This document shows, one piece after another, positions 7,423 through 32,638 of a DNA stretch of 32,812 nt. Positions within the stretch are counted from its first letter, which is position 1; each line of letters starts with the position of its first letter. Under the pieces are notes generated by a model. It saw only the letters and a list, made by a program, of their open reading frames with translations. It ran no database searches and was not told the DNA's origin. Origin of the DNA: Chloroflexota bacterium (lineage in GTDB: Bacteria > Chloroflexota > Anaerolineae > Anaerolineales > DRMV01); assembly GCA_013153135.1 (NCBI GenBank), contig JAADFA010000039.1, positions 1 to 32,812 on the forward strand. The letters are read 5' to 3'. Made by a program: the position numbers and the translations under genes.

Positions 7423-8723
7423 AGTACTGGGAACGTCTGTACCACGAACGCATGACCACCGCGGAGGACGCAGTTCGGGTGATCCAATCCGGGCAGCGGG
7501 TATTTTTGACGGGCAATTGTTCCGTGCCCCAAACCCTGGTGCATGCGTTGGTGCAGCGGGCGCGCGCGGGCGAGATCGAGGACGTGGAGCTGGTGCAGGT
7601 GCTCACCGTGGGTGACGCGGAGTACGTGAGCCCGGACCTGGAAGGACGCATCCGGGTCAATACGCTGTTCATCAGCGCGAACGTGCGCCAGGCTGTGCAC
7701 GAGGGCCGCGCGGACTTCACGCCTATCTTCCTGAGCGAAATCCCGGCGCTCTTTCGCAGTGGCGAGCTCCCGCTGGACGTGGCCTTGATCCACGTGTCGC
7801 CGCCTGATGAGCACGGGTTCTGCTCGTTCGGCGTTGAGGTCGGCATTACCAAGCCCGCGGCCGAATCCGCGCGCATTGTCATTGCGGAAGTCAACGACCG
7901 CATGCCGCGCACCCTGGGCGATTCCTTCATTCACGTCTCCAAGATCGACTACTTCGTGCCCGTCTCTTACCCCTTGCCCGAGTTGCCCCAGGGTCAGCCT
8001 GGCGAGGTGCAAAAACGCATCGCGGAGCACATCGCAGACCTCATCCCCGATGGCGCGACGTTGCAGCTGGGTATCGGCGGCATCCCGGACGCGGTCTTGC
8101 TGTACCTGGAAGACAAGCGCGACCTGGGCATTCATACCGAGCTCTTTTCCGATGGCGTGGTCACGTTGGTCGAGAAAGGCGTCATCACCAACGAGCGCAA
8201 GACCCTGCACCGGGGCAAAATCATCGCGGGCTTCGTGCTTGGCTCCCAGAAACTCTACGACTTTGTGGATAACAACGCGATGGTGGAGTTTCATCCCACG
8301 GACTACGTCAATGACCCCTTCGTCATTGCGCAGAATGACAATATGGTGGCCATCAATTCGGCCATTGAGGTGGACCTGACGGGGCAGGTGTGCGCGGATT
8401 CCATCGGCCACCGTTTTTACAGCGGTGTGGGTGGTCAGGTAGATTTCATCCGGGGTGCGGCGCGCAGTAAAGGCGGCAAGCCCATTATCGCGCTGCCCTC
8501 CACGGCCAAAGGGGGCACCATTTCCCGCATTGTCGCGACTCTCAAGCCAGGTGCGGGTGTGACTACCACGCGTAACGACGTGCACTATGTGGTGACCGAG
8601 TACGGCGTCGCGTACCTGCATGGCAAAACCATCCGGCAGCGGGTTCAAGCGTTGATCAACATCGCGCATCCGGATTTTCGTGCGGATTTGCGGCGCGAGG
8701 CCAGGCGGTTGGGTTATTTGTGA
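7419..8723 (+). CDS. Acetyl-CoA hydrolase/transferase family protein (4-hydroxybutyrate CoA-transferase-like)
   Basis: Motifs IHTELFSDG, EVDLTGQV and SGVGGQVDF are typical of this family. The start overlaps the ald stop as ATGA at 7419-7422, which indicates translational coupling. Confidence 0.85.
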   Translation: MKYWERLYHERMTTAEDAVRVIQSGQRVFLTGNCSVPQTLVHALVQRARAGEIEDVELVQVLTVGDAEYVSPDLEGRIRVNTLFISANVRQAVHEGRADFTPIFLSEIPALFRSGELPLDVALIHVSPPDEHGFCSFGVEVGITKPAAESARIVIAEVNDRMPRTLGDSFIHVSKIDYFVPVSYPLPELPQGQPGEVQKRIAEHIADLIPDGATLQLGIGGIPDAVLLYLEDKRDLGIHTELFSDGVVTLVEKGVITNERKTLHRGKIIAGFVLGSQKLYDFVDNNAMVEFHPTDYVNDPFVIAQNDNMVAINSAIEVDLTGQVCADSIGHRFYSGVGGQVDFIRGAARSKGGKPIIALPSTAKGGTISRIVATLKPGAGVTTTRNDVHYVVTEYGVAYLHGKTIRQRVQALINIAHPDFRADLRREARRLGYL

Positions 8724-8770
8724 GGTCGCGGCCTTGAGCTCGAGCTGCAGGTAATCACGGGCGAAAGGAA

Positions 8771-8800
8771 CGGGACGGGGCCCCATCGGGCCCCGTCCCG
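8771..8800. terminator. Bidirectional intrinsic terminator hairpin between convergent genes
   Basis: A 13-bp perfect stem pairs CGGGACGGGGCCC (8771-8783) with GGGCCCCGTCCCG (8788-8800) around the loop CATC. T-containing tails follow on both strands (TTCTGTGG and TTCCTTTC). Confidence 0.7.
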
Positions 8801-8845
8801 TTCTGTGGAAGGGAAGGTCGGTGGTGAGGGAGGGAGGGGTATGCC

Positions 8846-10126
8846 TTACTTGGCCATCTCCAGCACTGGGGGCTGGCTATACCATACGCTTGGGTCGTAG
8901 CGTAAGGTCAGGCCCGCCTCGCCCCGCAGATCCAGGGAATAGCAGATGAGTTGCGCGTGCACGTTGGTTTCCGAGGTGCCCGAGAAGTGGCATTTATCAA
9001 ATTCGGCGCCGCCGGTTACTAGCGCGTTAGGCGCGAAGATGGTGCCCGAAATCGCCGAGTCGGGCGTGCCAGAGATGAAGACCTGGCTGTTGCCCGGGTC
9101 GTTCATGTAAACCAACATTCCGTGCCACTCCTGGCCGTTGGCGTCGACCAGGTGGGTGGGCGCGCTCACGTTGAAGCCCAGCGTACCCTCCAGCTTGAAG
9201 TCTCCTTCGGTGATGTAGAACATCACGCCCTGGCCTTCGACGCGGCCGCCAGTGGCGAGGAACTCGCCCCGCAGGCAGTAGAGGCCGGGCTCCAGGGTGA
9301 CCCGGACGCGGGCACCGGTGATCCAAATGCGGTCATAGGTGCCAGGCGAGAGGGTGACGTCGCCATCGTTGACACTGATGTGGACCGCTCCATAGTCCGG
9401 TCCGGAGCATGCGGGCTCGGGCAGGGTAGGCACCTGGATGGGCGCGACGCCGGTGACAGGGGTGGGCGAGATGGTCCCCGGACCGGCCTGGAAGTAGCCG
9501 CCCACGATGTGGATCCAGTCGCTGCTCACCTGGATGGCGCCTGTACCCCACATGGCTGCGCTGCACGAGGCATTGACGAAGATGCCTCCCTGGACGTCGA
9601 GCTCGGGGTTGCCGGTGACCTTGAGGCCGGGGCACACGTCTTGGCCCGTGGTGACCAGGGTGTAGCCCCAGAACATGGGTTGCGCGGGCCGGGCCCGGCT
9701 TTGCGCTTCGGCCTGGATGCCAGGGTCACCAGGGTAGACGAGCTGGATGAGGGCAGGGGGCACGTGGTCCTCGATGGTGACGGTCGTGTAGTAATACACG
9801 CCATCGGGCTCAGTCTGACGCTCGATGGTGACAGTTACCTTGGTGTCCTCGTCATTCGTGTAGCCATACTCTGCTGCGCGTTCCAGCGCGGCTGTTCGCG
9901 CGGCTTCCTCGGCCGCGGGGCCGATGGTTCCGTCGCTCAGCAACGGTGAGCGCACGATGACAAAGCCCGCAGCCATCGCGGCTGCGTCGGCGGCGCTTTG
10001 CGCGTTCCGCTTCGCGACGTACAACCGACCGCCATCAACAGCCAGTCCGGTCATAGCCAACAAACCCAACATACCAACGACAAATAAAATGATTGCCTGT
10101 CCACGCGTACGGTGTTTCCGCACCAT
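8846..10126 (-). CDS. TadG-like pilus assembly protein (Tad_N / TadE-G-like N-terminus)
   Basis: The N-terminus RTRGQAIILFVVGMLGLLAMTGLAVDGGRLYVAKRNAQSAADAAAMAAG matches the TadG-type signature. I set the start at ATG 10126 because a perfect RBS AGGAGG lies 6 nt upstream on the minus strand. The ORF-track start at 10207 would overlap the upstream tadE-like gene. Confidence 0.8.
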   Translation of the reverse strand: MVRKHRTRGQAIILFVVGMLGLLAMTGLAVDGGRLYVAKRNAQSAADAAAMAAGFVIVRSPLLSDGTIGPAAEEAARTAALERAAEYGYTNDEDTKVTVTIERQTEPDGVYYYTTVTIEDHVPPALIQLVYPGDPGIQAEAQSRARPAQPMFWGYTLVTTGQDVCPGLKVTGNPELDVQGGIFVNASCSAAMWGTGAIQVSSDWIHIVGGYFQAGPGTISPTPVTGVAPIQVPTLPEPACSGPDYGAVHISVNDGDVTLSPGTYDRIWITGARVRVTLEPGLYCLRGEFLATGGRVEGQGVMFYITEGDFKLEGTLGFNVSAPTHLVDANGQEWHGMLVYMNDPGNSQVFISGTPDSAISGTIFAPNALVTGGAEFDKCHFSGTSETNVHAQLICYSLDLRGEAGLTLRYDPSVWYSQPPVLEMAK

Positions 10127-10145
10127 GATCAACCTCCTCATCAAT

Positions 10146-10577
10146 TTAGGGCGTTCCTGTAGGGCAAAGGGCCGACGATTGCAGCACCGTTTGCAGTGCG
10201 TCTGCACTTAGGTGCACCGTACCGTCGGGTACAAACGTGCGTGCAAAGGGAAACAGAACCATGTGATCCGTGCTCACCGCAACCTTGACACGGGCACCCG
10301 GGCACGCATGCCCATCCGGAAAGGTGACGTCTACCGTCACTTCGTCTTCAGGTACTAGCGAGCTGAGGGCATCTTTTACGCGATCTTCAATCCCGGGCGT
10401 ATCTGCGGGGTTGATGGCCGCGTACGCCGCACCCTCTTGAGCTGCGTCCGAGAGTGCGGTGTATTTAAACAGCACAAACCCCACATCTACCACACCCGCG
10501 ATGAGCAATAGAAGTAAGGTGAAGAATAGGGTAAATTCCACTAAGGCTTGGCCTGAGGTACGTCGTATCGTCATCAT
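10146..10577 (-). CDS. TadE-like pseudopilin
   Basis: The N-terminus RRTSGQALVEFTLFFTLLLLLIAGVVDVGF has a prepilin-like G/Q-x-x-x-E-F followed by a hydrophobic helix. The start lies 4 nt after the stop of the upstream gene, and the RBS GAGAGGTGA spans that stop. Confidence 0.8.
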   Translation of the reverse strand: MMTIRRTSGQALVEFTLFFTLLLLLIAGVVDVGFVLFKYTALSDAAQEGAAYAAINPADTPGIEDRVKDALSSLVPEDEVTVDVTFPDGHACPGARVKVAVSTDHMVLFPFARTFVPDGTVHLSADALQTVLQSSALCPTGTP

Positions 10578-10581
10578 GGTT

Positions 10582-11577
10582 TCACCTCTCCAGAAGTCGT
10601 CCCGCCCAACAGTAGTAAAGTCGGTCTAAAGTTTGCGAAAGCTCATCATTGGCAAAGCGGGCGTAGACAGTGATTCGTACGGAATCGCCATGAGCGATTT
10701 CCATGTCCGCGAAATCCCACACGGTGGGATTCGGGTCGGCCGCAGGCAGGTCATCCCAAAGGTAAAAATCCGCGCTAAGCTGGGCATGATAGGATTGTGC
10801 TGGTTGGGTCCAGCTCGGGTTAGGTTCCCAACTCGCGCTTTGGAGTACGCATTGGCGGCCGAGGCTGCGGTAGCCCACGCGCAGGTTAACCGGCGGTAGC
10901 GCGACCGGGGTTGGCGTGTGGGTCGGCGTAGCGGTTGAGGTCGCGGTTGCAGTAGGTGTTGGCGGTGGTGTGGTCGCGGTTGGGGTCGGCGTTATGGTAG
11001 CCGTGGGCGTCGCGGTAGCCGTGGCCGTGTAGGTACTGGTCGGTGTGGCAGTAGCTGTTGGTGTACCTGTTCCGCTCCACACCGCGGGGTGGTCGACGGT
11101 AATTTGGGCCAAGATGGTCCGTTTAGCTGTCGAGCGCAACGTCATCGACACCGAGGGAACCAAGGGAACCCAGGGCTTGTACTCCGCTTCAACGGTTACC
11201 AATACGCGCACACCTTTGGGGTCCGGGATCACGATGCGATCGACACCCGGCGGGCACTCCGCGAACACGGGAGTGTCGGGGCCACGATCGTATTGGATAC
11301 GTATGTCGTCCGGTTCCACACCCACGCTGCGCGCTAAGCGCAGCGCGGCGTCTCGGATACCTGCGCAGTCTTCATAGCGCGGCACCATAGGATCGCGGGG
11401 GCTCGCACCCACCGCGGCTGCATAGCGCGCGGCCTCTCGCGCGCCCATGATGACGGACGCGTACGTCCATACCAGGTGACCGAATTCAAAGAGCCCGGCC
11501 ACGATGAGCAAAACCAACGTGATGACTAGTGCGAACTCCAGTAGAGCTTGTGCGCGCTTAGCATAACGGATCCGCAT
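10582..11577 (-). CDS. TadE-like pseudopilin fused to a Thr/Pro/Ala-rich linker and an extra C-terminal domain
   Basis: The N-terminus KRAQALLEFALVITLVLLIVAGLFEFG is TadE-type. A low-complexity linker of T/P/A spans about aa 168-225 (nt about 10903-11076). It is followed by a unique C-terminal domain of about 105 aa with 2 Cys. An RBS GGGGGAG lies upstream of ATG 11577. Confidence 0.8.
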   Translation of the reverse strand: MRIRYAKRAQALLEFALVITLVLLIVAGLFEFGHLVWTYASVIMGAREAARYAAAVGASPRDPMVPRYEDCAGIRDAALRLARSVGVEPDDIRIQYDRGPDTPVFAECPPGVDRIVIPDPKGVRVLVTVEAEYKPWVPLVPSVSMTLRSTAKRTILAQITVDHPAVWSGTGTPTATATPTSTYTATATATPTATITPTPTATTPPPTPTATATSTATPTHTPTPVALPPVNLRVGYRSLGRQCVLQSASWEPNPSWTQPAQSYHAQLSADFYLWDDLPAADPNPTVWDFADMEIAHGDSVRITVYARFANDELSQTLDRLYYCWAGRLLER

Positions 11578-17475: not shown

Positions 17476-17669
17476 ACGCTCCTCCTTGGCGTGCTGGCGC
17501 GCGAGGCGCGCTCGCGAGGCTATAACCCCATCGCGGCGGGAAAGTTCCGGGCGCCGAATTCCAAGCCTGGTGCGATTCTTGGTCTCAGGCCTGCACGGAT
17601 GGGCTGGTTAGAGGTAAACTTAGGGTAAATCCGCGCGTAGCTCAAGCGTAAAGACGGGGAGGTTATCGT

Positions 17670-19004
17670 ATGGAACGTTCCGCCTTGTTGCGACGATGGG
17701 GAGTTGGGTTGCTCCTTATGCTTGTGCTCCTGATGGGGGTAGGTTGCGCGCGTGGTGGGACGAGCTCGCAGCCTCAGCAGCCACCAGCCTCGGCTGCGCC
17801 GCCCACCGCGACGGCCGCACCCGTGCAAGAGGAGATGCCCAAAGCCGCGTCGCCGACGCCCTTGCCCCAGATGCCCACGCCCACCATTCCACCTTCGGCT
17901 TCGCCCACGGTGGCTACTGGACGCATTGTCGGCATGGTGTGGGAAGACCGCTGCCCGCCGGAAGCGGCCACCCTGTTTTGTCGCGAGGACGCGACGTATG
18001 GCCTCATCGGCGATGGTGCACGGCAGCCCGATGAGCCCGCGCTCGCGAATATCGTCGTGCAACTCGCACAAGGCTCTTGTCCAGGTACCGTGTTGAGCGT
18101 GGCTAGCACCGATGCCCAGGGGCGCTTTGTGTTTGAAGGCGTCCAGCCGGGTACGTATTGCGTGCGCATTGACCCGGACGACCCCGCGAACGCGATGGTA
18201 CGGGATGGTATATGGACCTATCCCGTGGTTGGACAGTCGCAGGTCGAGGTGACCGTCGCACCCGGCGCGGAGGTCACGGTGGACTTTGGCGTGACGCGTG
18301 CACCTGGGGTCGCGGAGGCCGAACCCACCCAGGCGCCGCCTGCTGGGCCGCAGGCCGCACCAACGCAGGACGTCGCTCAGGCCAATATTCCGCCGACGCC
18401 CACCGCTACGCCCGTGCCTACCAATCCCTATGATTTGGGCGCTCCGGACGTGTTGGATACCATGGATCTGCCAGGGTTGCACTGGTATTTGCGTTGGGGC
18501 ACGGATGTAACCTTCAAGACGGCTTCGAGTAAGCCGGGTGTTTTGGTTATTCAGGTGCATAAGCCGGGCCCCGCGAATTATTGGACCTTGTCCACCTATC
18601 CTCCTTTGCGCAATGCCTACATCGAGGCAACCTTCATCACAGGGCCGCAGTGCAAACACAAGGACCGCTATGGGCTTATTGTGCGTGCACCAAGCACGCG
18701 GGAAGGATATCTTTTCTTGGTTTCGTGCGATGCTCGATACCGCATCTTGCGTTGGAACGGCGGCTTGAAGATATTGAAGGATTGGACGCCGTCGGATGCC
18801 ATCCATAAGGGGCCGAACCGCGTAAATCGGGTTGGCGTATGGATGCAGGATGACATCATGAAGCTTTATATCAACAGGGCTTTGGTTACCGAAGTTCAGG
18901 ATGATTACTTCCGCGAGGGCTACTTTGGCGTGGCCGCGGGGTCAGACCGAACGCCGGAGTTAGAGATCTACGTGGACGAAGTGGCGTATTGGATCTTGCC
19001 GTAA
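17670..19004 (+). CDS. Exported protein: signal peptide, Pro/Thr/Ala linker, Cna-B/SdrD-B-like beta-sandwich, second linker, ConA/LamG-like C-terminal domain
   Basis: The signal sequence is LLLMLVLLMGVGC. GRIVGMVWEDRC...GRFVFEGVQPGTYCVRI resembles SdrD B-like or carboxypeptidase-regulatory-like folds. The C-terminal YLFLVSCDARYRILRWNGG...MKLYINRALV...GYFGVAAG looks like a lectin/LamG jelly roll. The domain names are recollection, not a search result. An RBS GGGGAGG is present. Confidence 0.6.
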   Translation: MERSALLRRWGVGLLLMLVLLMGVGCARGGTSSQPQQPPASAAPPTATAAPVQEEMPKAASPTPLPQMPTPTIPPSASPTVATGRIVGMVWEDRCPPEAATLFCREDATYGLIGDGARQPDEPALANIVVQLAQGSCPGTVLSVASTDAQGRFVFEGVQPGTYCVRIDPDDPANAMVRDGIWTYPVVGQSQVEVTVAPGAEVTVDFGVTRAPGVAEAEPTQAPPAGPQAAPTQDVAQANIPPTPTATPVPTNPYDLGAPDVLDTMDLPGLHWYLRWGTDVTFKTASSKPGVLVIQVHKPGPANYWTLSTYPPLRNAYIEATFITGPQCKHKDRYGLIVRAPSTREGYLFLVSCDARYRILRWNGGLKILKDWTPSDAIHKGPNRVNRVGVWMQDDIMKLYINRALVTEVQDDYFREGYFGVAAGSDRTPELEIYVDEVAYWILP

Positions 19005-19125: not shown

Positions 19126-20175
19126 TTAGAAGTTCAACCCCTCGGGTGCGGTCGGCTCAGCCTCACTCGCTGTCGCGGGGCCTTCGCCTGTTGGGGCCTT
19201 TTGGAACACGCGGAATTCCACGGTCAACCGCGTGAAGTATTGGCCGTCCTGATCGGAGTCGCACTCGCAATCGCGCACAAAGACTTCTGCCCGTAGGCGT
19301 TCGGTCTCAAGCACGATTTGCTGTTGGGGTTCAGCCGCGAGGATGGCGCCACGTACTTCTAGGCGCTGACGCAGGGCTTCGTCGGCCGCGGCTTCTGGTG
19401 TGGCCAATACCACCGTCTCTGTGCGGATATCACTCTTGTCAAAGAGCCACACCTCAAACGCGTATACCTTCTTAGGTTGCGTTCCCCTTCCTTCCGAGAT
19501 GCTAATTCCGGCTTCGCCCAAGAACTCGCCCGTGGCTGAATCAATGGAGAAAGATTCGTCAAAGAAATCGTTGCCCAGTTCGTAGGTAGTCGTGTAGGCC
19601 GAGATGGGGCCCGGGCCCATCTCATCGCTAGTGATACCCGCGGCGCGTGCTGCCTCCGCCTTCTCTTGGGCCTTGGTCTTGTAACCTTGCCCTCGGCTCC
19701 GGGCTCGAATAAGCAGGAAGGCCAGCGCAGCGATGATGAACAGGGCCAAAATGCATAACAAGCCGTATTTTAGCAAGGAACTGGTTCCACCGCCTGCAGC
19801 CGCCCCAGCTTGGACTTGGCTAGCGATTTCGTTTTGGAAGCGCTGTACGGCTTCAGGGGGCAAATAATCGGGATTTTGGCTTACTGCACGCAAGGTTGCC
19901 TCCGCGGCCGTGCCCAATCCTTGGTATCGGATTTTAGCTCGGGCCGCGTCGCCCGTATTGATATAATCCGCGACCACCATGCGCAAGTAGTCTTGTCGCC
20001 AGCTGGCTTCCAGATGTTGCGGAGCCGCATCGGTCCACTTGACGGGCGCGATGAGCCAGCCCAGGATAAACCAACCGACGAACAGGCCGATCAAAAAGGC
20101 CACACCCAACGCGAGGGCGGGCTTGTTTCGAATCCGCTCGCCGATCATGTCGTTGAGGACGTCCAGAATCATCAT
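19126..20175 (-). CDS. Two-TM membrane protein of unknown function (349 aa)
   Basis: The start MMILDV at 20175 is preceded by GGGAGAGAG. The ORF-track start at 20325 lies upstream of the candidate promoter. TM segments are ALALGVAFLIGLFVGWFILGWLIA and LLKYGLLCILALFIIAALAFLLI. An acidic soluble C-terminal domain of about 190 aa follows. I recognise no family. Confidence 0.6.
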   Translation of the reverse strand: MMILDVLNDMIGERIRNKPALALGVAFLIGLFVGWFILGWLIAPVKWTDAAPQHLEASWRQDYLRMVVADYINTGDAARAKIRYQGLGTAAEATLRAVSQNPDYLPPEAVQRFQNEIASQVQAGAAAGGGTSSLLKYGLLCILALFIIAALAFLLIRARSRGQGYKTKAQEKAEAARAAGITSDEMGPGPISAYTTTYELGNDFFDESFSIDSATGEFLGEAGISISEGRGTQPKKVYAFEVWLFDKSDIRTETVVLATPEAAADEALRQRLEVRGAILAAEPQQQIVLETERLRAEVFVRDCECDSDQDGQYFTRLTVEFRVFQKAPTGEGPATASEAEPTAPEGLNF

Positions 20176-20221
20176 AACTCTCTCCCACCGACGAAGTCCT
20201 GCCCCTGGGGCGTTTGGCTTT

Positions 20222-20250
20222 ATTCTACGCCAAAGGCCAAAAATATGCAA
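20222..20250 (-). promoter_or_regulatory. Candidate sigma-70 promoter for the 349-aa membrane protein gene (TTGCAT-17-TAGAAT on minus strand)
   Basis: The minus strand reads TTGCAT (plus 20245-20250), a 17-nt spacer, then TAGAAT (plus 20222-20227). This is about 47 nt upstream of ATG 20175. Confidence 0.5.
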
Positions 20251-20338
20251 TGGCGCGTCGCGGCCTGGAATGCACGCAAATGTTGTCGAAACGGTCAAGG
20301 GGCGAGGGTCTGCGGCGCAGGGCATTGTCGCCGTTGGC

Positions 20339-22914: not shown

Positions 22915-23182
22915 GGTGGGGCTATTGTACCGCGGTAAAACGTGGGACGAATTTTCGAACTGACGGGAACGTTTTGGCATTGAACACCGTTAAAAGAAAG
23001 TAACAGGCGAACCACACCAAGAGCGGAAGGAGAAGTATTGTAAGTCGCAACTCAAAATATATATTATCATGCACCATTGCGCAAACACGCGCAAGGATAG
23101 GAAAGTGTTGTTTGTTTCATAAGATAAAAGGTGCTTTCGCTCAGATAATCGCCAGTAATGCGGGAAATATTCGGGTTTATCC

Positions 23183-23211
23183 TTGACAATGTGCCATATA
23201 TTTGGTATATT
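23183..23211 (+). promoter_or_regulatory. Near-consensus sigma-70 promoter (TTGACA-17-TATATT) in an AT-rich spacer
   Basis: TTGACA is at 23183-23188 and TATATT at 23206-23211, with a 17-nt spacer. GGAGG follows at 23227-23231, then ATG 23235/23238. The surrounding 22981-23234 is unusually AT-rich (24/60 GC in 23041-23100). Confidence 0.7.
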
Positions 23212-23234
23212 GAGGCAGGCTGAGAAGGAGGGTT

Positions 23235-25124
23235 ATGATGCACGTTGAGCCAAGTTTGCGGCAGCGAGTGTTCGAGGATTTGCATCAAGAGGGCGTTCTA
23301 CAGGGTGGCTTTTTCCGCGTGGATGCTGAGGGGCGAGTTGTGGACATGGACGCGGGCGTGCGCCAGCTGTGGTGTATTCAAGTGGGCCAGCCATGGTATG
23401 AAGCCACCTTTTACCCAGAGCGTGCCCGGCAGTGGTTCTTCGAGACCGTGGGTCGCGGGCATGGGAAGGTGCCCATGAAGACCTGGCTGCTGCGCGGTTG
23501 CCCGAAGACGTCGAAGGGCCGCTCCTATTTCTGGGGGCGGCTCTTCTTTTACCCTGCTGACCAGGGCTGGCTGGGATATGTGCTGGATCGCACGGGCGAT
23601 GAGGTATGCCGACGGCTGCAACGCATCCCTGTGGGTTTTTACGTCGTAGCGCGCGACCCCGAAGGCGTGGAGCGCGTGGTCTACGCGACCCAGGGCTTCG
23701 CGGATCTGTACCAGTTCCCCAGCGTCGAGGCCGCCATCGAGACCCCCATCGTGAAGCTGTTCCGCCATGAAGAGGACTATGAAAAATTCTTGCACGAACT
23801 GCGCACCCGCACTCCGCATCGTCTGCAAGGCTGGAAAAACGAAACGCGTACCGCCCAGGGCGAGCCCCGGCACATTTCCGCGGACATTGCCTGGCACCTG
23901 GAGGGGGAAGGAAAGGACGCCCAAATTGCCGAACGCTACGGCATTTTACGCGACCTAACCAAAAGCGAGTTCTACACCTCCTATCTGCGAGATTACGCGG
24001 TGGTGCTGCACACGTATTCCAACGCACTACTTGAGATGCTCAACGTCCTCAGTGTGCTCAAGATCCCCATGTTGCCTGACCCTTTCAAAGATCTTGAGAA
24101 TACCAGCTCCATTCTTGAGCATGCGGAATATGTTCACCACTGGTTCCACAAGACTCGCCAGCCCGTGCTGGCCGCGTTGCGGGACCTGTTATCTCAGGCC
24201 GAAGCGCGCGGCCTTCAGGATGACATTGAGGTGCGCCACATGCAACGATATTACGAGCGCTTACGCGCGTTAGATGAGCACTTGGATTTGCCTTCGCCCC
24301 GGTTCATTGCCTCGGTGCATTTGGAGATTGGGAGTCGAATCTTGCGGCGCACCCAGCGCTTGCGTGAACAGCGCCCGCGCCACGGTCCCTGGTTCTCTAA
24401 AGAGGTCTTGCGTCGCGTGCGGGCCACCGCGTGGGATATGGTTCGCATTGCGTCCCTGCTGGTCATTTATCCCCTGGCGGGGCGTTTGATCGAACTTGGG
24501 GATGAGATTCGATTGTTCCGCGAATTTTGGAACACGCCATTGCGGCGCTATCAGCCTAAAGACGTCAATTTAGTCGACGTGCTCGAAGGCGTGCTGCAAG
24601 CCTTGAGCGACTTCGCTCACAGCCGGGGCGTGCGCTGGAAGCGCCTTGCACCCTGGCCGCGCGCGGCGTGGGTGCGTGCGGACCCCGCGGCCTTGCGCCG
24701 GGCCCTCAGCCACCTGGTGCATAACGCGGTCAAGTACAGCTGGCAGCGCGCCAGCGGAACGTGGGTGGCCTTGCGCCTGACCCAGGAAGCGCGCGCGGGC
24801 CAGGCAGGGTGGCTCCTGGAGATCGAGAATTACGGCGTGCCCATCCCGCCCGATGAGCTCCAAGATGGCACCATCTTCCAATTTGCCTATCGCGGTCGGC
24901 TGGCGCCCGACCGGCACCGTTTGGGTACGGGCATTGGGCTGTACGACGCGTATCGGGTCATCCGCGATTTGGAGGGGAACCTGACCCTGACCAGTGACCC
25001 GGCCTCGCCCATCGCGCCGGACGAGGACCCGCTATATGAGGTCGACCCCGCGACGGGCGAGCGCAAACTGCGGCCGCATTTGGTTCGCGCGCGGGTGTGG
25101 TTGCCCGCCACCGCACAAACGTAG
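23235..25124 (+). CDS. Cytoplasmic sensor histidine kinase, PAS-like x2 + HisKA_2-like H-box + long helical insert + HATPase_c
   Basis: No TM segment is present. Two PAS-like modules span about aa 1-120 and 130-240. The H-box-like LHTYSNALLEM (H259, codon CAC 24009-24011) fits H-x3-N-x-L. The N-box is LVHNAVKYS (N497), followed by IENYGVPIP and the G2 box GTGIGL. Confidence 0.75.
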   Translation: MMHVEPSLRQRVFEDLHQEGVLQGGFFRVDAEGRVVDMDAGVRQLWCIQVGQPWYEATFYPERARQWFFETVGRGHGKVPMKTWLLRGCPKTSKGRSYFWGRLFFYPADQGWLGYVLDRTGDEVCRRLQRIPVGFYVVARDPEGVERVVYATQGFADLYQFPSVEAAIETPIVKLFRHEEDYEKFLHELRTRTPHRLQGWKNETRTAQGEPRHISADIAWHLEGEGKDAQIAERYGILRDLTKSEFYTSYLRDYAVVLHTYSNALLEMLNVLSVLKIPMLPDPFKDLENTSSILEHAEYVHHWFHKTRQPVLAALRDLLSQAEARGLQDDIEVRHMQRYYERLRALDEHLDLPSPRFIASVHLEIGSRILRRTQRLREQRPRHGPWFSKEVLRRVRATAWDMVRIASLLVIYPLAGRLIELGDEIRLFREFWNTPLRRYQPKDVNLVDVLEGVLQALSDFAHSRGVRWKRLAPWPRAAWVRADPAALRRALSHLVHNAVKYSWQRASGTWVALRLTQEARAGQAGWLLEIENYGVPIPPDELQDGTIFQFAYRGRLAPDRHRLGTGIGLYDAYRVIRDLEGNLTLTSDPASPIAPDEDPLYEVDPATGERKLRPHLVRARVWLPATAQT

Positions 25125-25136
25125 GAGGAGAGAGGC

Positions 25137-25736
25137 ATGGGTACACGAGAACCGTTACAACCACCCGTACGGGTTTTGTGGATGGAAGACAAAGCGGGTC
25201 ATGAGCTCGCCATGGTGGCCAGCGCGGTCTATTTGGACGGCCGCTTTGCCCTGGACTTCGCGACTGACGCGTCCGAGGCCCTGCATTTGCTGGCCCTGAC
25301 GGACCAGGAGCGCTATCCTTATCAGATCCTCGTGGTCGACCTCGACCTGCCCCCGGGGGAGCAGCAGGACCTGATCGAGGTGTACCAGGAGGTGCACCAT
25401 CAGGGCCGTACGCCCATGCTCGGCCTTTACCTGCTCGAATATTTGCTGGCTGGTGAAGGTCCCCTGCACCAGCGGGTGCTCCAAAAGCCGGACAGTCCGC
25501 TTTCTTGGGCCTTGAATTTGTTACGGAAGAATATCCGCAATCAAACCCCGCCCCCGCGTATTGGCGTGTTTTCCATTTACGCGGAGATGACCAAGGACCG
25601 CCTTCGGCAATTGGGCCTGGAGGATGACGTCATCATTCAAAAGCGCGTAGGGATGCCGCGCTACGAGCTGCTGAATCTTTTGATTCGCCTCGCGGGTTGG
25701 AATGAAGACGACGCCTTAATTGAAGACCTCTGGTAA
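25137..25736 (+). CDS. Single-domain response regulator (receiver) with internal insertion
   Basis: The RBS is AGGAGGAGAG. The acidic pair is in LWMED (E17/D18). The phospho-acceptor candidate is D68 in ILVVDLD (GAC 25338-25340), with S146 in VFSIYA and K169 in IIQK. An extra segment of about 40 aa lies between the D68 strand and the S146 strand. No output domain is present. Confidence 0.65.
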   Translation: MGTREPLQPPVRVLWMEDKAGHELAMVASAVYLDGRFALDFATDASEALHLLALTDQERYPYQILVVDLDLPPGEQQDLIEVYQEVHHQGRTPMLGLYLLEYLLAGEGPLHQRVLQKPDSPLSWALNLLRKNIRNQTPPPRIGVFSIYAEMTKDRLRQLGLEDDVIIQKRVGMPRYELLNLLIRLAGWNEDDALIEDLW

Positions 25737-25802
25737 GGCCATTGGAACGCTTCGGTTTGCCAGGCCAGGTAGGGTTGTTGAACTGTAAAGGAGGGGTGCA
25801 CA

Positions 25803-27389
25803 ATGCTGAGTTCGGGGTGGTTGAGCCTTCTGGAAGCGTTGACGGAATTGATCCTGTTCGGCATCACCGTGCCGCTGTTGTTCTTCGAACGACCCGCATG
25901 GATGCGCCTGCTGCGTCGTCGCTATTCCTCATGGCGCCTGTTCCCGTTGCGCTTTGGGCAATCATGGATCAAAATGACCTTTGTCGGCCTGGGATTGCTG
26001 CTCATTGCAACGGTGATGAGCGGGCTCGCGGTGGCCGCGTCCTATTGGCCCGAGGTCCCTTTGTTTGCGTGGCTGCTGCGCCATGAGACGTGGTTTTCTT
26101 TGGCTCGTTTCATCATCTTAGGCCTCGCGATTATACTTATTGGTGTTCTTTGGTACCAGCTTTATACAACTGAGCTCTCCATCCTCGCCCGACGTATCTT
26201 TTGGATTGCACGAGCTTGTTTGAAGTGCCCTCAATGTCAGCCGAAAGTGTATGATTTTGGTTCGGAATCTGGCTTATTCTTGTCCGAACAAGAGATGGAC
26301 AACCTTATCAAGCGGACGGCCGTGCTGCAAGAGGGGCGTCCATCTCGCATCCTCGCCAAGGTGCAGGTGTGGCTGGTATGTCATGGGAAGAGGTTTTTTG
26401 ACCAGATTCGCTATGACTATCGCCGGTCGATTCGGGACTTAGGGTTGCTGGGGCTGAATACAACGATCCCGGCTGAGACGCACAATATCTTGCGACTGCT
26501 TCATATTTTGGCCTTTAAAGTGCCCCTTTGCACGCGATCGCTTGACGGCCAGGATGAGCCCACGCCCTTTGTCCTGCTCTTGGAGGCGGTGCTCAATACG
26601 CTGCGGCCTTTGGAAGCCAGCGATAAAGGGTGTTTTAAGGAGGCTCTGGATACGTTCCACGTCTTGATGAAGCGTTGGCGGGTGGTTGACGCGCTGGCGG
26701 ATATTCCGTCGAGCGAGCGCGATCAGTGTTTCTCAGAATCCCCCTTTGTCATATACCTGGAGCGCTTTGGCGAGCTCCTGCTCGAGCGGGATGACCTGTT
26801 CGATCTGTTTACGACATTTATCAAGCTTTTTGAGCCCGACCGCAACCCCGCGGAAAATAGCCAGGAGATTGAAGCTCTGGTGCGCTTGAGCAAAGGTGCA
26901 TTGGAGCAGGGCCGTTGGTCCGCGCTGGGCGCGGTGCTCTCGCAAATGCGGGATTATCTTATGTATTACACGAAGGCTGATCATGCCCACCTGGCGCGCA
27001 TTTGTTGTTCGACGCGCACCAATGGCCGCGTGGACGATGCCTTCGTCAGCTGGGCGTGGTATTGGGGCTTCGCGGCCCTGGCCTGGTATCGCGTGGCCGG
27101 AACCTGTCCGTGGATCGTGCGTTTGCTGGCCTCGCACGTCCATCACTTGCAGCAAGCTTATAACACGGATTTCGCGACCGCGCTACGCCGTCTAGCCCAG
27201 GGGCTGGATGAGGTGATCCACTTTTTAACCCTGTACACCCTGGAGCCTGATATGGCCGTGGCTGTGTACGCGCTGCAGCGCCATCTGGAACGTCAGGCCA
27301 CGCGTGGGGATTGGCGTCACTTTTGCCGCGAGCGTTTCGACGCCGCGGCGTTACCTGCGGTCCAAGCGGGCGCGGTGGACGAGGTTTAG
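25803..27389 (+). CDS. Membrane-anchored protein of unknown function (528 aa)
   Basis: The RBS is AAAGGAGGGG. The first 125 aa contain three hydrophobic helices. A C-x2-C-x2-C motif follows (C139, C142, C145; TGT at 26217). The remaining region of about 380 aa is predicted helical and soluble, and I recognise no family motif in it. This gene has the lowest coding GC in the window (27/60 in 26101-26160). Confidence 0.6.
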   Translation: MLSSGWLSLLEALTELILFGITVPLLFFERPAWMRLLRRRYSSWRLFPLRFGQSWIKMTFVGLGLLLIATVMSGLAVAASYWPEVPLFAWLLRHETWFSLARFIILGLAIILIGVLWYQLYTTELSILARRIFWIARACLKCPQCQPKVYDFGSESGLFLSEQEMDNLIKRTAVLQEGRPSRILAKVQVWLVCHGKRFFDQIRYDYRRSIRDLGLLGLNTTIPAETHNILRLLHILAFKVPLCTRSLDGQDEPTPFVLLLEAVLNTLRPLEASDKGCFKEALDTFHVLMKRWRVVDALADIPSSERDQCFSESPFVIYLERFGELLLERDDLFDLFTTFIKLFEPDRNPAENSQEIEALVRLSKGALEQGRWSALGAVLSQMRDYLMYYTKADHAHLARICCSTRTNGRVDDAFVSWAWYWGFAALAWYRVAGTCPWIVRLLASHVHHLQQAYNTDFATALRRLAQGLDEVIHFLTLYTLEPDMAVAVYALQRHLERQATRGDWRHFCRERFDAAALPAVQAGAVDEV

Positions 27390-28285
27390 CCCGGCAGCGC
27401 GGTCAGCACCGCGGCGAGGGTGACCCAGGCTAGGTAGACGTTGGAGAAGTGAAAGAGGCGTTTAGCCTCGGGCGCGGTGGGCCAACGCCACAGGCGCCAC
27501 GTTTGATAGAGATAGTAAACCGAGGGTGGCGCGACGAGCAGCGCGTAAGCCAGGCCTAGCCGGGGCCACGCGGCCATGAGCAGAGCCACGAGCACCGACG
27601 CGACGGTGTGCAGCGCGACCCAACGGACCGCGTGCGCGGCTGGCACGCGCACCGGCAGCATAGGGAATCCAGCTCGGTGATAGTCTTCGCGGTAGACCAG
27701 CGCTAGGCTCCAAAAGTGCGTCGGCGTCCACAGAAAAACCAGCGCGGCCAAGGCCCAGGCCGCGGGGTTGTCCCAGTGGCCCACCGCGGCTGCACCGCTG
27801 ATGACGGCCGCGCTACCCGCCGCGCCACCGATGACGATGTTGACAATGGTACGCCGTTTCAATGCCCAAGTGTATACCACCAGGTAAATCAGGGCCCCTG
27901 CGGCCACGGCCCAGCCCAGTTGCGGACGATGCCATGCCGCGAGCAGCAGGCCAAGGCCCAAGGCCCCTGTGCCCAGCAACGCCGCGAGGGCCGCGGGGAT
28001 ATCTCCGCGGGGGAGGGGGCGCTGCTGCGTGCGCTCCATCGCGCGGTCTAGATCGCGTTCCCAGACCTCGTTGAGGGCCGACGCCCCGCCCGCCGCGAGC
28101 AACCCGGCCAGGAGCAGCACCGCCAAATCCGGCCACGCGCGGCCGTGGTTGAGCCACGGCTCGGCCGCCAACACCGCGCCGCCCACCGCGACCACCAAGA
28201 GCAGCGCCACGACCCGAAGTTTAAACAACACAACCGCGCGCGCACCCCAGGCCCGCGCGTCCCAGCTAGGCCGGTTTTGGCTCAT
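27386..28285 (-). CDS. ctaB: Protoheme IX farnesyltransferase (heme O synthase)
   Basis: It has a UbiA-family topology with the motifs NEVWERDLDRAMERTQQRPLPRG and FLWTPTHFWSLAL. The RBS GGGAGG lies 8 nt upstream of ATG 28285. Confidence 0.9.
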   Translation of the reverse strand: MSQNRPSWDARAWGARAVVLFKLRVVALLLVVAVGGAVLAAEPWLNHGRAWPDLAVLLLAGLLAAGGASALNEVWERDLDRAMERTQQRPLPRGDIPAALAALLGTGALGLGLLLAAWHRPQLGWAVAAGALIYLVVYTWALKRRTIVNIVIGGAAGSAAVISGAAAVGHWDNPAAWALAALVFLWTPTHFWSLALVYREDYHRAGFPMLPVRVPAAHAVRWVALHTVASVLVALLMAAWPRLGLAYALLVAPPSVYYLYQTWRLWRWPTAPEAKRLFHFSNVYLAWVTLAAVLTALPG

Positions 28286-29480: not shown

Positions 29481-31166
29481 TCACGGCGCGGGAAGGGCTG
29501 CGCAGCGCACGCGATAAATGCGCACGTTCGCCCACGCGATGGGTAGATCGAGCCAGGGCCGCGACGGAGGCGGCTGCAGACCCGGTGGGTTTTCATCTAC
29601 ATAAGCCCACACCGTGCGCCCAGGAGCACATTGCCTTCGGAGAAAATTCGCTTCCCACCATCTCACCTTGCGCGATACACGTTCGACCTGGAGCCCTGTA
29701 AGCACTGGAACCCACGCGCCCCCATCGTAAGCCCAGGTTCCACCCCCGCGCGCGATAAGCACGTGCGCGGGCGGCTGGGCCTGACGGCGCAAGAAGGTTT
29801 GGGCAACCACATCGTCTTCTTGCGCGATGATGGTGACCGGGTTGAGCCAGGGCGGTTTATGCGCCAGCCAGGTGAGCGCACCTCCCAAGGCCAAGGCTCC
29901 GAGCACGACCTGCCCTGCCGCGCGCCACGTTTCAAGGGTCAAGCCCTGGGGCCAAGCCCGTCGGAGCGCCGCGGCCCAGGTAAAGGCCGTCGTAAGCGGG
30001 GCCAAGAGCTCAAAGGTGGGTCGGTCGATCCAAGGCGAGCCGATCCCGGGCAGCCAAGGGAGCGGTGCGTACGCCAACGCCAGCAGCGCGGCCCATCCCG
30101 CGCTTGCCAACCCAGCCCGTCGAGGGCGCAGCAAGTTAAGGCCCACAAGTAGCCCCATCCCCAACCACGCGGGCCGAGCAATGAAGCGCCAAAAGCCCAC
30201 GTCGCGTATCAAGAGCCCGTGCGCGGCCCAAAGGCCATACACCCCCCAGGCGAACCAGAACCCACGGCGCGCGGTCCACGGGCCCATCCACCGTAGCCAC
30301 CACCACACAAGCACGGTGAGCCCAGCCCACAAGGCCACCCGACTATGCACCCAACCAAGCCCCATAAGCAAAAGCCCCGGCAGAAGCCGCGCGACGAATC
30401 GCCGCGCCCGGGAGCTTGGGCCCCAATGTGCCAGCACACCTGGCGTGAGCGCAATGGCCCAGAGCGCGGGGTACTTGCCCCAGGTGAGGCCATAAAACGG
30501 CGTGGTCCATGCCCACGTACCAAGCCACGCAATTAGCGCGGCCAGTCCCGCGGGCGCGCCCTGGCTGCGCTGCAGCCGATACAGCCCCCAGGGCAGAATC
30601 ACGCCCAGGGCCAGGATGGTGAGGGCCAGCAGCCCCATGGGTTGGAAGGACAGCCCTGCCCATAGGGGCCATGCCATCAGCGCGTAGCTTCCTTGGTGAT
30701 AATACGCTACCTTCCAGGGACCAATCCGGAGGATGGCGCCATGGGGAGACACGTCCGGCGGTACGTGGAGGTAGTCAGCCCGAAGGTGCCACGCGTGCAG
30801 CGCTGCGTCGGGGTAGGGAGGCAAAACCAGGCCCGCGAGGGGCGCGAAAGCCCATAGGAGCCCGCCCGCGCTTCCGAGTACAAGCAATCCGGCCGCGAGG
30901 GTAAGGCGATGCCGCCACGCGCGCGCCCAACGCACCAGGCCGATAATCACCAGCGCCCACGTGAGCCCGAGACGTGGGTATGTTGGCCAATCGCGCACAA
31001 GCCATCCCGCGACCCCCAACGTAACGAGCCCGGCTATTACGTCGCCCGAGCCCCGAGTTGTCCCCTCGGGGCTGAGACCACGGGCTGCAAGGTACAGCAC
31101 CCCAAAACCAAGGAGCCACGGGCTCCACAGGAGGAGTTGATGCAGGCCGCGGAGGAAGGTATCCAC
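29481..31166 (-). CDS. Large polytopic membrane protein (561 aa) with C-terminal soluble domain, function unknown
   Basis: The GTG start at 31166 has AGGAG 9 nt upstream. About 12 or more Trp/Leu/Gly-rich hydrophobic segments are followed by a non-membrane tail of about 120 aa. It lies 30 nt downstream of the paralogous exported-protein genes. Confidence 0.6.
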   Translation of the reverse strand: MDTFLRGLHQLLLWSPWLLGFGVLYLAARGLSPEGTTRGSGDVIAGLVTLGVAGWLVRDWPTYPRLGLTWALVIIGLVRWARAWRHRLTLAAGLLVLGSAGGLLWAFAPLAGLVLPPYPDAALHAWHLRADYLHVPPDVSPHGAILRIGPWKVAYYHQGSYALMAWPLWAGLSFQPMGLLALTILALGVILPWGLYRLQRSQGAPAGLAALIAWLGTWAWTTPFYGLTWGKYPALWAIALTPGVLAHWGPSSRARRFVARLLPGLLLMGLGWVHSRVALWAGLTVLVWWWLRWMGPWTARRGFWFAWGVYGLWAAHGLLIRDVGFWRFIARPAWLGMGLLVGLNLLRPRRAGLASAGWAALLALAYAPLPWLPGIGSPWIDRPTFELLAPLTTAFTWAAALRRAWPQGLTLETWRAAGQVVLGALALGGALTWLAHKPPWLNPVTIIAQEDDVVAQTFLRRQAQPPAHVLIARGGGTWAYDGGAWVPVLTGLQVERVSRKVRWWEANFLRRQCAPGRTVWAYVDENPPGLQPPPSRPWLDLPIAWANVRIYRVRCAALPAP

Positions 31167-31196
31167 GCGTTCACACTCCTGACGAGAGGCAGGTGT

Positions 31197-31850
31197 TTAG
31201 GGATAGCTGCCCTCCCCACCCAAGAGCCGCGGTTTCGGTGGCTCTCCTACAGGGATGTCGTTTTGTATCGCGGCCAGTACTATTGGCGGCACGGGGATTT
31301 CATAAAGCATATTATCTTGAATGTAGCCAAGGCGTAGTTGAATGGGCCGCGTGGGTGGCACGACGCCCATACAATACGCGCGCGAGGGCGAGATATCGGG
31401 CAGGGTGATGCAATCGAGGCGTACACCGTTGATTTCAACAAAGAACGTCTCCGGATGAGGAAGGTTTTCAAAAACGTAACGGTAGACCCGCTGCCCCTGG
31501 TAGACCGTCCAGCCGATGCTATATAGACAAGGTTCCTTGATTTCGTACTCACAGTGGCCGGCGAAGGCAAGAGGCGCTGCCGTGGGGGAGGGAGTAAGGG
31601 AGGGTGTCCAGGTGGGGCTGGCGGACGCTACGGTGGGGGATGGTGGCGACATGGTCACCGCGGGTGTTGGACTGGGCTGCGGGGTCGAGCTCGCGGTAGG
31701 CCGAGGCGAGGGGAGGCTCGGCGTGGTCAGGGGTGAAGGAGGGGTTGGGCTTGGGAGCAAGGTGGGCGCCGTGCTCTCTTGGCGGCTGCAGCCCCATAGC
31801 GCAAGCAAGGCCCCGAGTATGACCACAAAATAATGCACGCAGGTTCGCAT
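31197..31850 (-). CDS. Exported four-Cys domain protein, paralog 1 (217 aa)
   Basis: The RBS AGGAGGG lies 5 nt upstream of ATG 31850. The signal peptide ends in Cys (ALLALWGC). A P/S/T linker is followed by a domain with PCLY, VYRYVFEN, FFVEINGV, DCITLP and AYCMG. Confidence 0.7.
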   Translation of the reverse strand: MRTCVHYFVVILGALLALWGCSRQESTAPTLLPSPTPPSPLTTPSLPSPRPTASSTPQPSPTPAVTMSPPSPTVASASPTWTPSLTPSPTAAPLAFAGHCEYEIKEPCLYSIGWTVYQGQRVYRYVFENLPHPETFFVEINGVRLDCITLPDISPSRAYCMGVVPPTRPIQLRLGYIQDNMLYEIPVPPIVLAAIQNDIPVGEPPKPRLLGGEGSYP

Positions 31851-31894
31851 GGTGTCCCTCCTAACGTAAATTTTATTTGCGGCCCATTACCGCC

Positions 31895-32638
31895 CTAAGG
31901 TGTCGACGTTGCCGTCGGGGTTATGGGCGGCGTGTTGGTTGGCGTAAACGACGGCAAGGGGGTGGGCGTCTGGGTTCCGGTTGCGGTCGCGGTAGGTGAG
32001 GGCCAGGGGATAGGCCCGGGTGGGGTGCCCTGGGGAAGCCAGAGACGCATTTCGCCTTGAATCGCGGGCGGAATGAAGATCAACCGTTCATCTCCCCCAA
32101 AGCGATAACCAATACGCAGCTCAGGAAAGAGACGATAGGGCGATGGACCCATGCAGTACACACGCGTTTTGGAGAACTCGGGCAGATAAACGCACTCCAA
32201 CTCCGCGCCGTTGAGCTCCATGAAGAAGTGCCTTGGGTATAAAATGTTCTCGAAAACGTAGCGATAGACGTATTCCTGCTTATATATCATTTTGCCAACA
32301 TGGTAGAGGCAGGGCAGACGCATGCCGGGCTGGCAACGGCCACCGAATCGATACGCGTCGATGGTTGGGGTTGGGGTAAAGGTGGGGGATGGGGTCGGTG
32401 TGAGCCAGACGACCGTCGGGGTAGCGGTAGCCGTTGGGGTTGCACTAGGGCGCGGGGTGGCTGTCGGCGGCTGGGTGGGCGAGGGGCGGAGGGTGGGCAA
32501 CTGGAGCGGTTGCCACTGCTTGGAGTCTGGTGTTGGGCTGGGCAAAAGCGTTGGGAGCGCGGATGGGCCTGTGCAGCTGAGCAGGCCCATCAAGATGCCC
32601 ACAAAAAGGAGGAACAAGCTAAAACGATGGTATCTCAT
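31895..32638 (-). CDS. Exported four-Cys domain protein, paralog 2 (247 aa)
   Basis: The signal peptide has the lipobox-like GLLSC. A P/T linker is followed by the same domain (PCLY, VYRYVFEN, FFMELNGA, ECVYLP, VYCMG) and an extra C-terminal P/T-rich tail. Confidence 0.7.
   Translation of the reverse strand: MRYHRFSLFLLFVGILMGLLSCTGPSALPTLLPSPTPDSKQWQPLQLPTLRPSPTQPPTATPRPSATPTATATPTVVWLTPTPSPTFTPTPTIDAYRFGGRCQPGMRLPCLYHVGKMIYKQEYVYRYVFENILYPRHFFMELNGAELECVYLPEFSKTRVYCMGPSPYRLFPELRIGYRFGGDERLIFIPPAIQGEMRLWLPQGTPPGPIPWPSPTATATGTQTPTPLPSFTPTNTPPITPTATSTP

Follow-up and report, generated by a model that had tools for sequence, protein, structure and literature searches.

A Chloroflexota-restricted gene trio predicted to encode a soluble PAS kinase, a divergent receiver and an unclassified membrane protein

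The typical endpoint of a two-component system is a DNA-binding regulator. To our knowledge, there are few cases in which a stand-alone receiver controls a dedicated membrane protein encoded beside it, and each of them has uncovered a new type of output. Three-component systems such as LiaF-LiaS-LiaR and BceAB-BceS-BceR contain a membrane-bound kinase and a DNA-binding regulator. Here we describe three consecutive plus-strand genes in a 32,812-nucleotide (nt) stretch of a Chloroflexota bacterium (GenBank assembly GCA_013153135.1, contig JAADFA010000039.1, positions 1 to 32,812; referred to as the window), which are predicted to encode a tandem-PAS histidine kinase (gene 1), a stand-alone receiver (gene 2) and a membrane protein of no described family (gene 3; Table 1). 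As in LiaFSR and BceAB-BceSR, a third, membrane protein with very short extracytoplasmic loops is co-encoded with a kinase/regulator pair. Unlike in those systems, however, the kinase is apparently soluble, the regulator lacks an output domain, and the gene 3 protein matches no Pfam family at E<=1, the families of the LiaFSR and BceAB-BceSR accessory proteins included. A literature search returned general comparators only and no description of this trio. From comparison of the sequences and their genomic contexts, we consider it somewhat probable (roughly 0.55) that the trio constitutes a self-contained, Chloroflexota-restricted, three-component signaling module with a non-transcriptional partner.

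Linkage and organization of the three genes

The genomic contexts of every gene 3 family member were compared by tabulating them with tblastn. A homolog of gene 2 is located immediately upstream of gene 3, on the same strand, at all 14 distinct loci, and a PAS kinase gene precedes gene 2 at each of the 10 loci with enough contig, the other four ending at a contig edge. Distances within the trio are short, or the genes overlap, at every locus. The initial annotation of this DNA had suggested a neighborhood search to learn whether homologs of the gene 3 protein co-occur with such a kinase/receiver pair, and these counts show that they do. A metagenome scan for more family loci yielded four, two of them new, and all named records are metagenome-assembled genomes (MAGs) of Chloroflexota or Anaerolineales.

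The DNA around the trio is not the same from lineage to lineage. Downstream of gene 3 are ctaB and ctaA in the window and in a sister genome (L001, GCA_054035715.1), a 2-oxoacid:ferredoxin oxidoreductase and an FCD regulator at loci L010 and L013, and the oxidoreductase alone within the contig at L007; open reading frames (ORFs) at L018 match the oxidoreductase arrangement by size and order only, their domains not having been scanned. At L005, L015 and L017, the trio has genes for an ABC transporter or an acyl-CoA ligase as its neighbors. The trio is a conserved unit, restricted to Chloroflexota, with neighbors that differ by lineage. It is convergent with a POR/TPP_enzyme_C pair at L007, L010 and L013, and with the heme O/A synthase genes in the window and L001. 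These redox and energy-metabolism neighbors may hint at the cue sensed by the PAS domains, or they may be a coincidence.

In the window, the genes are separated by 12 nt (genes 1 and 2) and 66 nt (genes 2 and 3), and the co-orientation, the gaps and a GGAGG-type ribosome-binding site (RBS) ahead of each gene are all as first annotated. So too is the AT-rich spacer upstream of gene 1 with its TTGACA and TATATT hexamers (22981-23234, 254 nt, GC 0.413), in which a scan returned four promoter-like sites compared with 1.3 +/- 1.2 in shuffled sequences. The sigma-70-type promoter listed in Table 1 would give a 5' untranslated region of about 20 nt. In the sister genome, TTGACA, the 17-nt spacing and a TGGTATAcT -10 region (shared pattern TGGTATAnT) have been retained within a spacer that is otherwise poorly conserved, and this pattern supports the promoter being functional. 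The sister genome contains only the second of the two possible ATG codons of gene 1, and a database copy of the protein (P0004) is 628 amino acids (aa) long; the true start is therefore probably the second ATG, which would yield a 628-aa product. The ratio of nonsynonymous to synonymous substitution (dN/dS) relative to L001 is 0.21 for gene 1, 0.15 for gene 2 and 0.18 for gene 3, values that point to purifying selection on all three genes. Based on co-orientation, tight spacing, the conserved promoter and the three-way linkage, the trio is a real operon.

At its 3' end, the operon meets the convergent ctaB gene (UbiA-family, 27386-28285, minus strand), and the two stop codons overlap by 4 nt (27386-27389); no terminator-like hairpin was found between the converging gene 3 and ctaB units. 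An Rfam scan of the whole window detected no family at gathering score and no tRNAs, and we rejected a riboswitch or small RNA in the AT-rich spacer because no Rfam match reached that score anywhere in the window.

Table 1. Positions of the three genes, their expression signals and inferred protein features (nucleotide positions refer to the window; aa, residue numbers in the respective protein)
Feature	Position	Strand	Description or basis
Promoter, sigma-70-type	23183..23211	+	TTGACA (23183) -17- TATATT (23211), TG extended -10; 11/12 consensus positions matched
Gene 1 RBS	23226-23231	+	AGGAGG, 6 nt ahead of ATG 23238
Gene 1	23235-25124	+	629 aa as annotated ORF
Gene 1, PAS-like A	~aa 1-120		
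Gene 1, PAS B	~aa 125-245		followed by helix with invariant His259
Gene 1, His259 codon	24009..24011	+	in VVLHTYSNAL; inferred phospho-acceptor; 629-aa numbering
Gene 1, helical segment	~110-150 aa in length		unmatched
Gene 1, DHp alpha-2	~aa 407-440		
Gene 1, CA	aa 483-589		
Gene 1, Asn532 codon	24828..24830	+	G1-box position, Asp in canonical DxGxG; HK853 alignment
Gene 2 RBS	25123-25128	+	AGGAGG, overlaps gene 1 stop TAG (25122-25124)
Gene 2	25137-25736	+	199 aa
Gene 2, D68 codon	25338-25340	+	inferred acceptor Asp; motif table and PDB alignments
Gene 3 RBS	25788-25794	+	AAGGAGG, upstream of 25803 start
Gene 3	25803-27389	+	528 aa
Gene 3, TM helices 1 to 3	aa 4-28, 54-79, 95-121		hydropathy and family alignment

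The kinase and the stand-alone receiver

Gene 1 is predicted to encode a soluble, tandem-PAS sensor histidine kinase, and its product has no transmembrane (TM) segment, as judged from sequence. HATPase_c (PF02518) is its sole Pfam match (aa 483-589, 42.9 bits versus a cut-off of 26.4, E=7.7e-11). The description of gene 1 as a PAS kinase is borne out at the level of the family and not for the window protein itself: Pfam PAS models (PAS, PAS_4, PAS_8 and PAS_9) match 5-6 of seven kinase family members in the region corresponding to aa 125-245, with a best E of 2e-11, whereas the window's own protein has no PAS match in Pfam at E<=1. When a profile built from the first 450 residues was compared with PDB sequences, the matches were exclusively LOV/PAS structures (positions 70-123, best E=7e-4). 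Full-length relatives in Chloroflexota are 41-47% identical.

The C-terminal part can be compared with HK853 of the Thermotoga maritima HK853-RR468 pair. Using hhalign, the gene 1 family aligned with HK853 at a probability of 98.9% (E=1.3e-17) over alpha-2 of the dimerization and histidine phosphotransfer (DHp) domain and the catalytic and ATP-binding (CA) domain only, with N box, F-box region and G2 box in common; no alignment to the H-box of HK853 was found. Systems of this type share with the trio a cytoplasmic PAS input and a stand-alone receiver partner with an acidic pair, an Asp, a Ser/Thr and a Lys. They differ from it in that the G1-box Asp is Asn in gene 1, the residue after the candidate phospho-acceptor His is Thr rather than Glu or Asp, and about 150 unmatched helical residues intervene between the His helix and alpha-2. 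The gene 2 receiver, moreover, carries two insertions and goes undetected by Pfam, and a linked membrane protein is always present.

PAS kinases normally carry DHp alpha-1 directly after the PAS domain, and His259 is placed likewise, 19 residues past the 'RDLT' strand of PAS B, in the motif VVLH-T-Y-S-[N/S/T]-A-L. His259 is the only invariant His N-terminal to the CA domain and was found in all nine kinases that cover the region. The roughly 150 residues that lie between it and alpha-2 are conserved and helical and match nothing, and none of the Pfam models for DHp families (HisKA, HisKA_2, HisKA_3 and HWE) matched any of seven kinase members at E<=1. Some features recall HWE/HisKA_2 kinases and their FAT-GUY receivers (Sma0114, 2lpm): H-x-x-x-N-x-L of gene 1 resembles the HisKA_2 'HRxxN', the G1 box lacks the canonical Asp, and 2lpm is the best PDB match of the gene 2 profile. 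In contrast to those proteins, gene 1 has an F-box region and gene 2 lacks PFxFATGY. We rejected membership of the kinase in this group, and regard the likeness as a resemblance only, since 0/7 members match Pfam HWE_HK or HisKA_2 at E<=1.

The nucleotide-binding site itself is unusual. At the G1 position, 10 of 11 family kinases have Asn and one has His (family motif IENYGV[PAG]I), while the N box HLVHNAVKYS (H493...N497), the F-box region and the G2 box GTGIGL (GTGIGLYDA) are invariant in the family. An Asp-to-Asn change at this position abolishes ATP binding in Hsp90 and GyrB, which are GHKL ATPases. With this Asn and its displaced His helix, the gene 1 product may be unable to autophosphorylate. 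It could be a pseudokinase to which the receiver binds as to a receptor or scaffold, in the way that DivK~P does to DivL, or it could use some nucleotide besides ATP, and the lack of an alignable H-box beside alpha-2 would fit such a role. There is a precedent for a histidine-kinase catalytic domain having been repurposed to sense the phosphorylation state of a response regulator (PMC4211667). However, the N-box Asn, the GTGIGL lid of the G2 box, the F-box region and His259, with N/S/T at +4, are all invariant, as are all residues for phospho-chemistry in the receiver, and this pattern of constraint suits retained catalysis better than a decayed site. In addition, Asn may still be able to accept a hydrogen bond from adenine N6. 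The strict conservation of the remaining motifs speaks in favor of a nucleotide site that works, if perhaps in altered form, and we regard the pseudokinase or altered-nucleotide alternative, which could be combined with signaling in either direction, as improbable.

Gene 2 appears to encode a highly divergent, stand-alone, REC-like receiver, such that the annotated label is right in kind while the protein lies outside the Pfam family. Scans against Pfam, NCBIfam and PADLOC returned no match for the gene 2 protein, and Response_reg (PF00072) did not match the window's copy at E<=10. The single sequence matched two receiver structures in PDB at E~0.2 only. A profile built from seven sequences, by comparison, gave 11 PDB matches, 10 of which are receiver domains (best, 2lpm at E=0.0032), covering beta-1 to beta-3. 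In the PDB alignments, the acidic pair of the receivers coincides with E17-D18 and their acceptor Asp with D68. E17, D18, D68, S146 and K169 are invariant wherever a copy extends to the position (alignment of 14 loci, two of which are truncated at the 5' end), although 'invariant', here as elsewhere in a family of effectively 8-14 sequences, carries limited weight. S146, within S-I-Y, and K169, within [I/V]-x-K, are spaced as expected for beta-4 and beta-5. An hhalign comparison with CheY placed P-MLGLeLL-flR of gene 2 on CheY PNMDGLELLKTIR, at the beta-3/alpha-3 junction, with a probability of 19.5%, which is supportive and not decisive. This alignment also exposes an insertion of about 21 aa right behind D68-L-D-L, and a second insertion lies between alpha-3 and beta-4.

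The membrane protein and the direction of signaling

Gene 3 belongs to a very small family. A word-indexed search of 5.8 billion proteins returned a single relative, the sister-genome copy (79% identity), and an exhaustive HMMER search of 1.84 billion representatives added six further relatives at about 30% identity (E 3e-30 to 2e-44), giving a family of 7 clusters among those representatives; none is annotated as anything beyond 'hypothetical protein'. The protein has no match in Pfam, NCBIfam or PADLOC at E<=1, and the best match of its profile among PDB sequences is at E=1. AlphaFold2, given eight sequences, produced a confident all-alpha model, with a predicted local distance difference test score (pLDDT) of 78.7 and a predicted TM-score (pTM) of 0.75. 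Foldseek searches with this model found no real match in PDB (best E=0.036, TM-score <=0.29) or in BFVD (best E=0.035), and the weak matches were all to generic ARM/HEAT/importin/TPR proteins or designed helical repeats. We describe the gene 3 product as a putative membrane-anchored alpha-solenoid of an undescribed family, with no recognizable catalytic fold and a likeness only to solenoids of the generic protein-binding kind. That gene 3 has no relative in any of these resources agrees with the initial annotation, which had put the cassette forward as an undescribed module.

Three TM helices are followed by a variable linker (aa 146-205) and an all-alpha helical-repeat domain (~aa 206-505) that opens with an invariant DLGxLGxNTxxPxET (aa 212-226). 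TM1 contains invariant E11 and E15, the Arg-rich cytoplasmic loop 1 contains an invariant RPAWxRxxRxRYSxW (aa 30-44), and TM3 contains LWYQ; conservation in the protein is highest in TM1, where this Glu pair lies, and on the cytoplasmic surfaces. In all eight members examined, the N-terminus is acidic, loop 1 has 5-15 Lys and Arg residues, loop 2 is short and near-neutral, and 3-5 Lys and Arg residues follow TM3. Reading this charge pattern by the positive-inside rule, we infer an N-out/C-in topology with a cytoplasmic domain of about 400 aa. Two members, P0010 (L015 1162-2763) and P0014 (L012 2628-4100), have an insertion in cytoplasmic loop 1, which in P0010 seems to add a pair of hydrophobic helices; the N-out/C-in topology would be preserved. 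We rejected a CxxCxxC motif at aa 139-145 as a candidate metal site, as it is kept in the sister genome only and not family-wide.

None of the three proteins has a DNA-binding domain in Pfam or NCBIfam, in agreement with the initial annotation, and no DNA-binding response regulator was found elsewhere in the window. An output that acts on the membrane protein in place of DNA, as the initial annotation had suggested, is plausible in view of the linkage. We propose that the soluble kinase would sense a cytoplasmic cue through its PAS domains, possibly redox or a small ligand, autophosphorylate on His259 and serve as phosphodonor for Asp68 of the receiver. Because the receiver has no output domain, its phosphorylated form would act by protein binding. 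The likeliest target would be the cytoplasmic face of the gene 3 protein, either the Arg-rich loop or the start of the alpha-solenoid, and binding would change the activity of the membrane-anchored scaffold or what it recruits. CheY-FliM and DivK-DivL (PMC4211667) are similar in that a single-domain receiver without output domain is read, when phosphorylated, by another protein. They are different in that the presumptive partner here is a three-TM alpha-solenoid protein unrelated to FliM or DivL, and no CheA, CheW or MCP (methyl-accepting chemotaxis protein) genes are near the trio.

Several observations weigh against a self-contained module of this kind. PF00072 matches only two of seven gene 2 family members, and its best E of 0.038 does not reach the curated threshold. 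An AlphaFold2 model of gene 2 based on two sequences had a pLDDT of 45 and was unusable; its Foldseek matches (e.g., Rubisco small subunits) were disregarded as noise. His259 is not next to the CA domain, where a canonical H-box would be, and the displaced His helix, together with Asn or His in the G1 box, could compromise catalysis by the kinase. The kinase can also exist without genes 2 and 3, since loci L003 and L004 keep it alone: the solo kinase P0006, which at 47% identity is closest to the window clade, is present at both. Finally, the genomic linkage is silent on the direction in which information flows.

A tblastn search of the 700-nt stretch behind P0006 found no remnants of gene 2 or gene 3 (best E=0.69). 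This stretch (L003 4552-5254, corresponding to L004 2436-3138) has a GC content of 0.62 and no sizeable ORF. P0006 is the kinase with His in place of Asn in the G1 box, and it ends in an Arg-rich tail of 20 aa.

With respect to direction, the membrane-anchored solenoid as the output is a tentative choice that we would put a little short of even odds. It is the most economical arrangement because the trio stays constant amid changing surroundings, the PAS domains supply an input and the receiver lacks an output domain. The main rival, which we hold to be unlikely, reverses the wiring: the gene 3 protein would be an input or tether, recruiting one or both of its partners to the membrane and passing on a signal from within the membrane or from the envelope, much like the accessory proteins of LiaF-LiaS and similar three-component systems, and the receiver would signal to an unlinked target or serve as a phosphate sink. 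In favor of this arrangement, the kinase has no TM segment. In gene 3, conservation is highest in TM1 and loop 1, and, as is the case for intramembrane sensors, the extracytoplasmic loops are very short; stand-alone receivers such as CheY and DivK often have unlinked targets; the linkage data fit equally well. On the other hand, the kinase already has two PAS sensor domains, no other conserved neighbor could be the output, and the three genes are kept together while their neighbors change, as would be expected of a unit that contains its own output.

The solenoid-as-output arrangement has a more specific form, which is doubtful as a whole. In this form, the trio would represent a new class of two-component output without transcription: the phosphorylated receiver with its insertions would dock on a novel type of membrane alpha-solenoid and switch a membrane process, and the kinase, given its G1-box Asn and its split DHp domain, would use a non-canonical nucleotide or autophosphorylation mechanism. 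The pair of Glu residues in TM1 could then mark an ion- or proton-linked function.

Composition, origin and significance of the locus

The initial annotation described a lower-GC cassette and took the contrast in composition to suggest acquisition as a unit. Its 60-nt counts are exact (24/60 GC at 23041-23100, 27/60 at 26101-26160 and 44/60 at 27901-27960), and genes 2 and 3, with GC contents of 0.580 and 0.566, are 3-5 points under the window mean of 0.613 (gene range 0.552-0.689). Gene 1, however, is average at 0.615, and the contrast arose because gene 3 was compared with ctaB, which at 0.689 is the most GC-rich gene of the window. GC content at third codon positions (GC3) is 0.74, 0.71 and 0.68 for genes 1, 2 and 3, compared with a window range of 0.61-0.81, and in Jensen-Shannon (JS) divergence of synonymous codon usage from the rest of the window, gene 1 ranks 23rd, gene 2, which is short, 5th, and gene 3 19th among 25 genes. 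GC3 of the trio is lower than that of adjacent metabolic genes in every lineage examined (e.g., 0.52-0.55 versus 0.83 at L007), and equally low values occur in other regulators (0.61 for LexA in the window; 0.62-0.63 for FCD and HisKA_3 at L013). We read the low GC3 of the trio as the weak codon bias of regulatory genes with low expression.

In favor of a horizontally acquired island or an anti-phage defense cassette are, besides the lower GC of genes 2 and 3 and the GC3 difference from metabolic neighbors, the presence of the trio in three different genomic contexts and a weak match of the CA domain of the kinase to PADLOC PDC-M43B (E=1.3e-5). This PADLOC match reflects the generic HATPase fold only, and we rejected a defense system on that ground. 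Against an island, GC3 and codon usage of all three genes are within the window range, and the other regulators show the same low GC3. Synonymous divergence (dS) from L001 is 0.50-0.73 for the trio and 0.37-0.53 for ctaB/ctaA; this similarity to the flanking genes indicates that the cassette was already present in the common ancestor of the window genome and L001, in which the same site is occupied. P0006, the relative with 47% identity, is preceded by LexA-CutA-holB exactly as the window kinase is, and no integrase, transposase, tRNA or repeats were found near the trio in the window. Neither acquisition as a unit nor recent acquisition is supported by these data, and a recent island or defense cassette is an explanation that we consider very improbable. 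Older transfers among Chloroflexota may have occurred, given the three different contexts.

Other parts of the window contain further uncharacterized genes. The minus strand downstream of ctaA (29481-32638) encodes a polytopic membrane protein of 561 aa and has two further ORFs (217 and 247 aa), all three without a Pfam match. L001 has ORFs of similar size (558, 225 and 249 aa) arranged alike at 6788-9971; this may be another uncharacterized, conserved block beside heme A synthesis genes. Two long ORFs overlap on opposite strands, at 17520-18806 (minus) and 17670-19004 (plus), the former having no Pfam match and deviating in codon usage more than any other gene of the window (JS 0.051). Beside this pair, 19126-20325 (minus) encodes a 399-aa single-TM protein, also without Pfam match. 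Tad-type pseudopilin-like proteins are encoded at 8846-11577 (minus), one with a TadG/Tad domain (453 aa) and one TadE-like (331 aa), and the gap between the two genes has a lower GC content (0.547 around 10201-10800).

The trio is a previously undescribed, lineage-restricted, three-component variant of two-component signaling. Its importance is limited by its rarity, as the gene 3 family amounts to so few clusters among the representatives searched and comes from uncultured Chloroflexota in a few samples. The kinase family presents a natural experiment on kinase mechanism, in which the G1 Asp has been replaced by Asn family-wide while the other ATP-lid motifs are intact, and a second one, in which the His helix has moved about 150 residues away from the remaining DHp domain. 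The family is also small and cleanly delimited and its three members travel together, such that the partner of the receiver has effectively been nominated by genomics.

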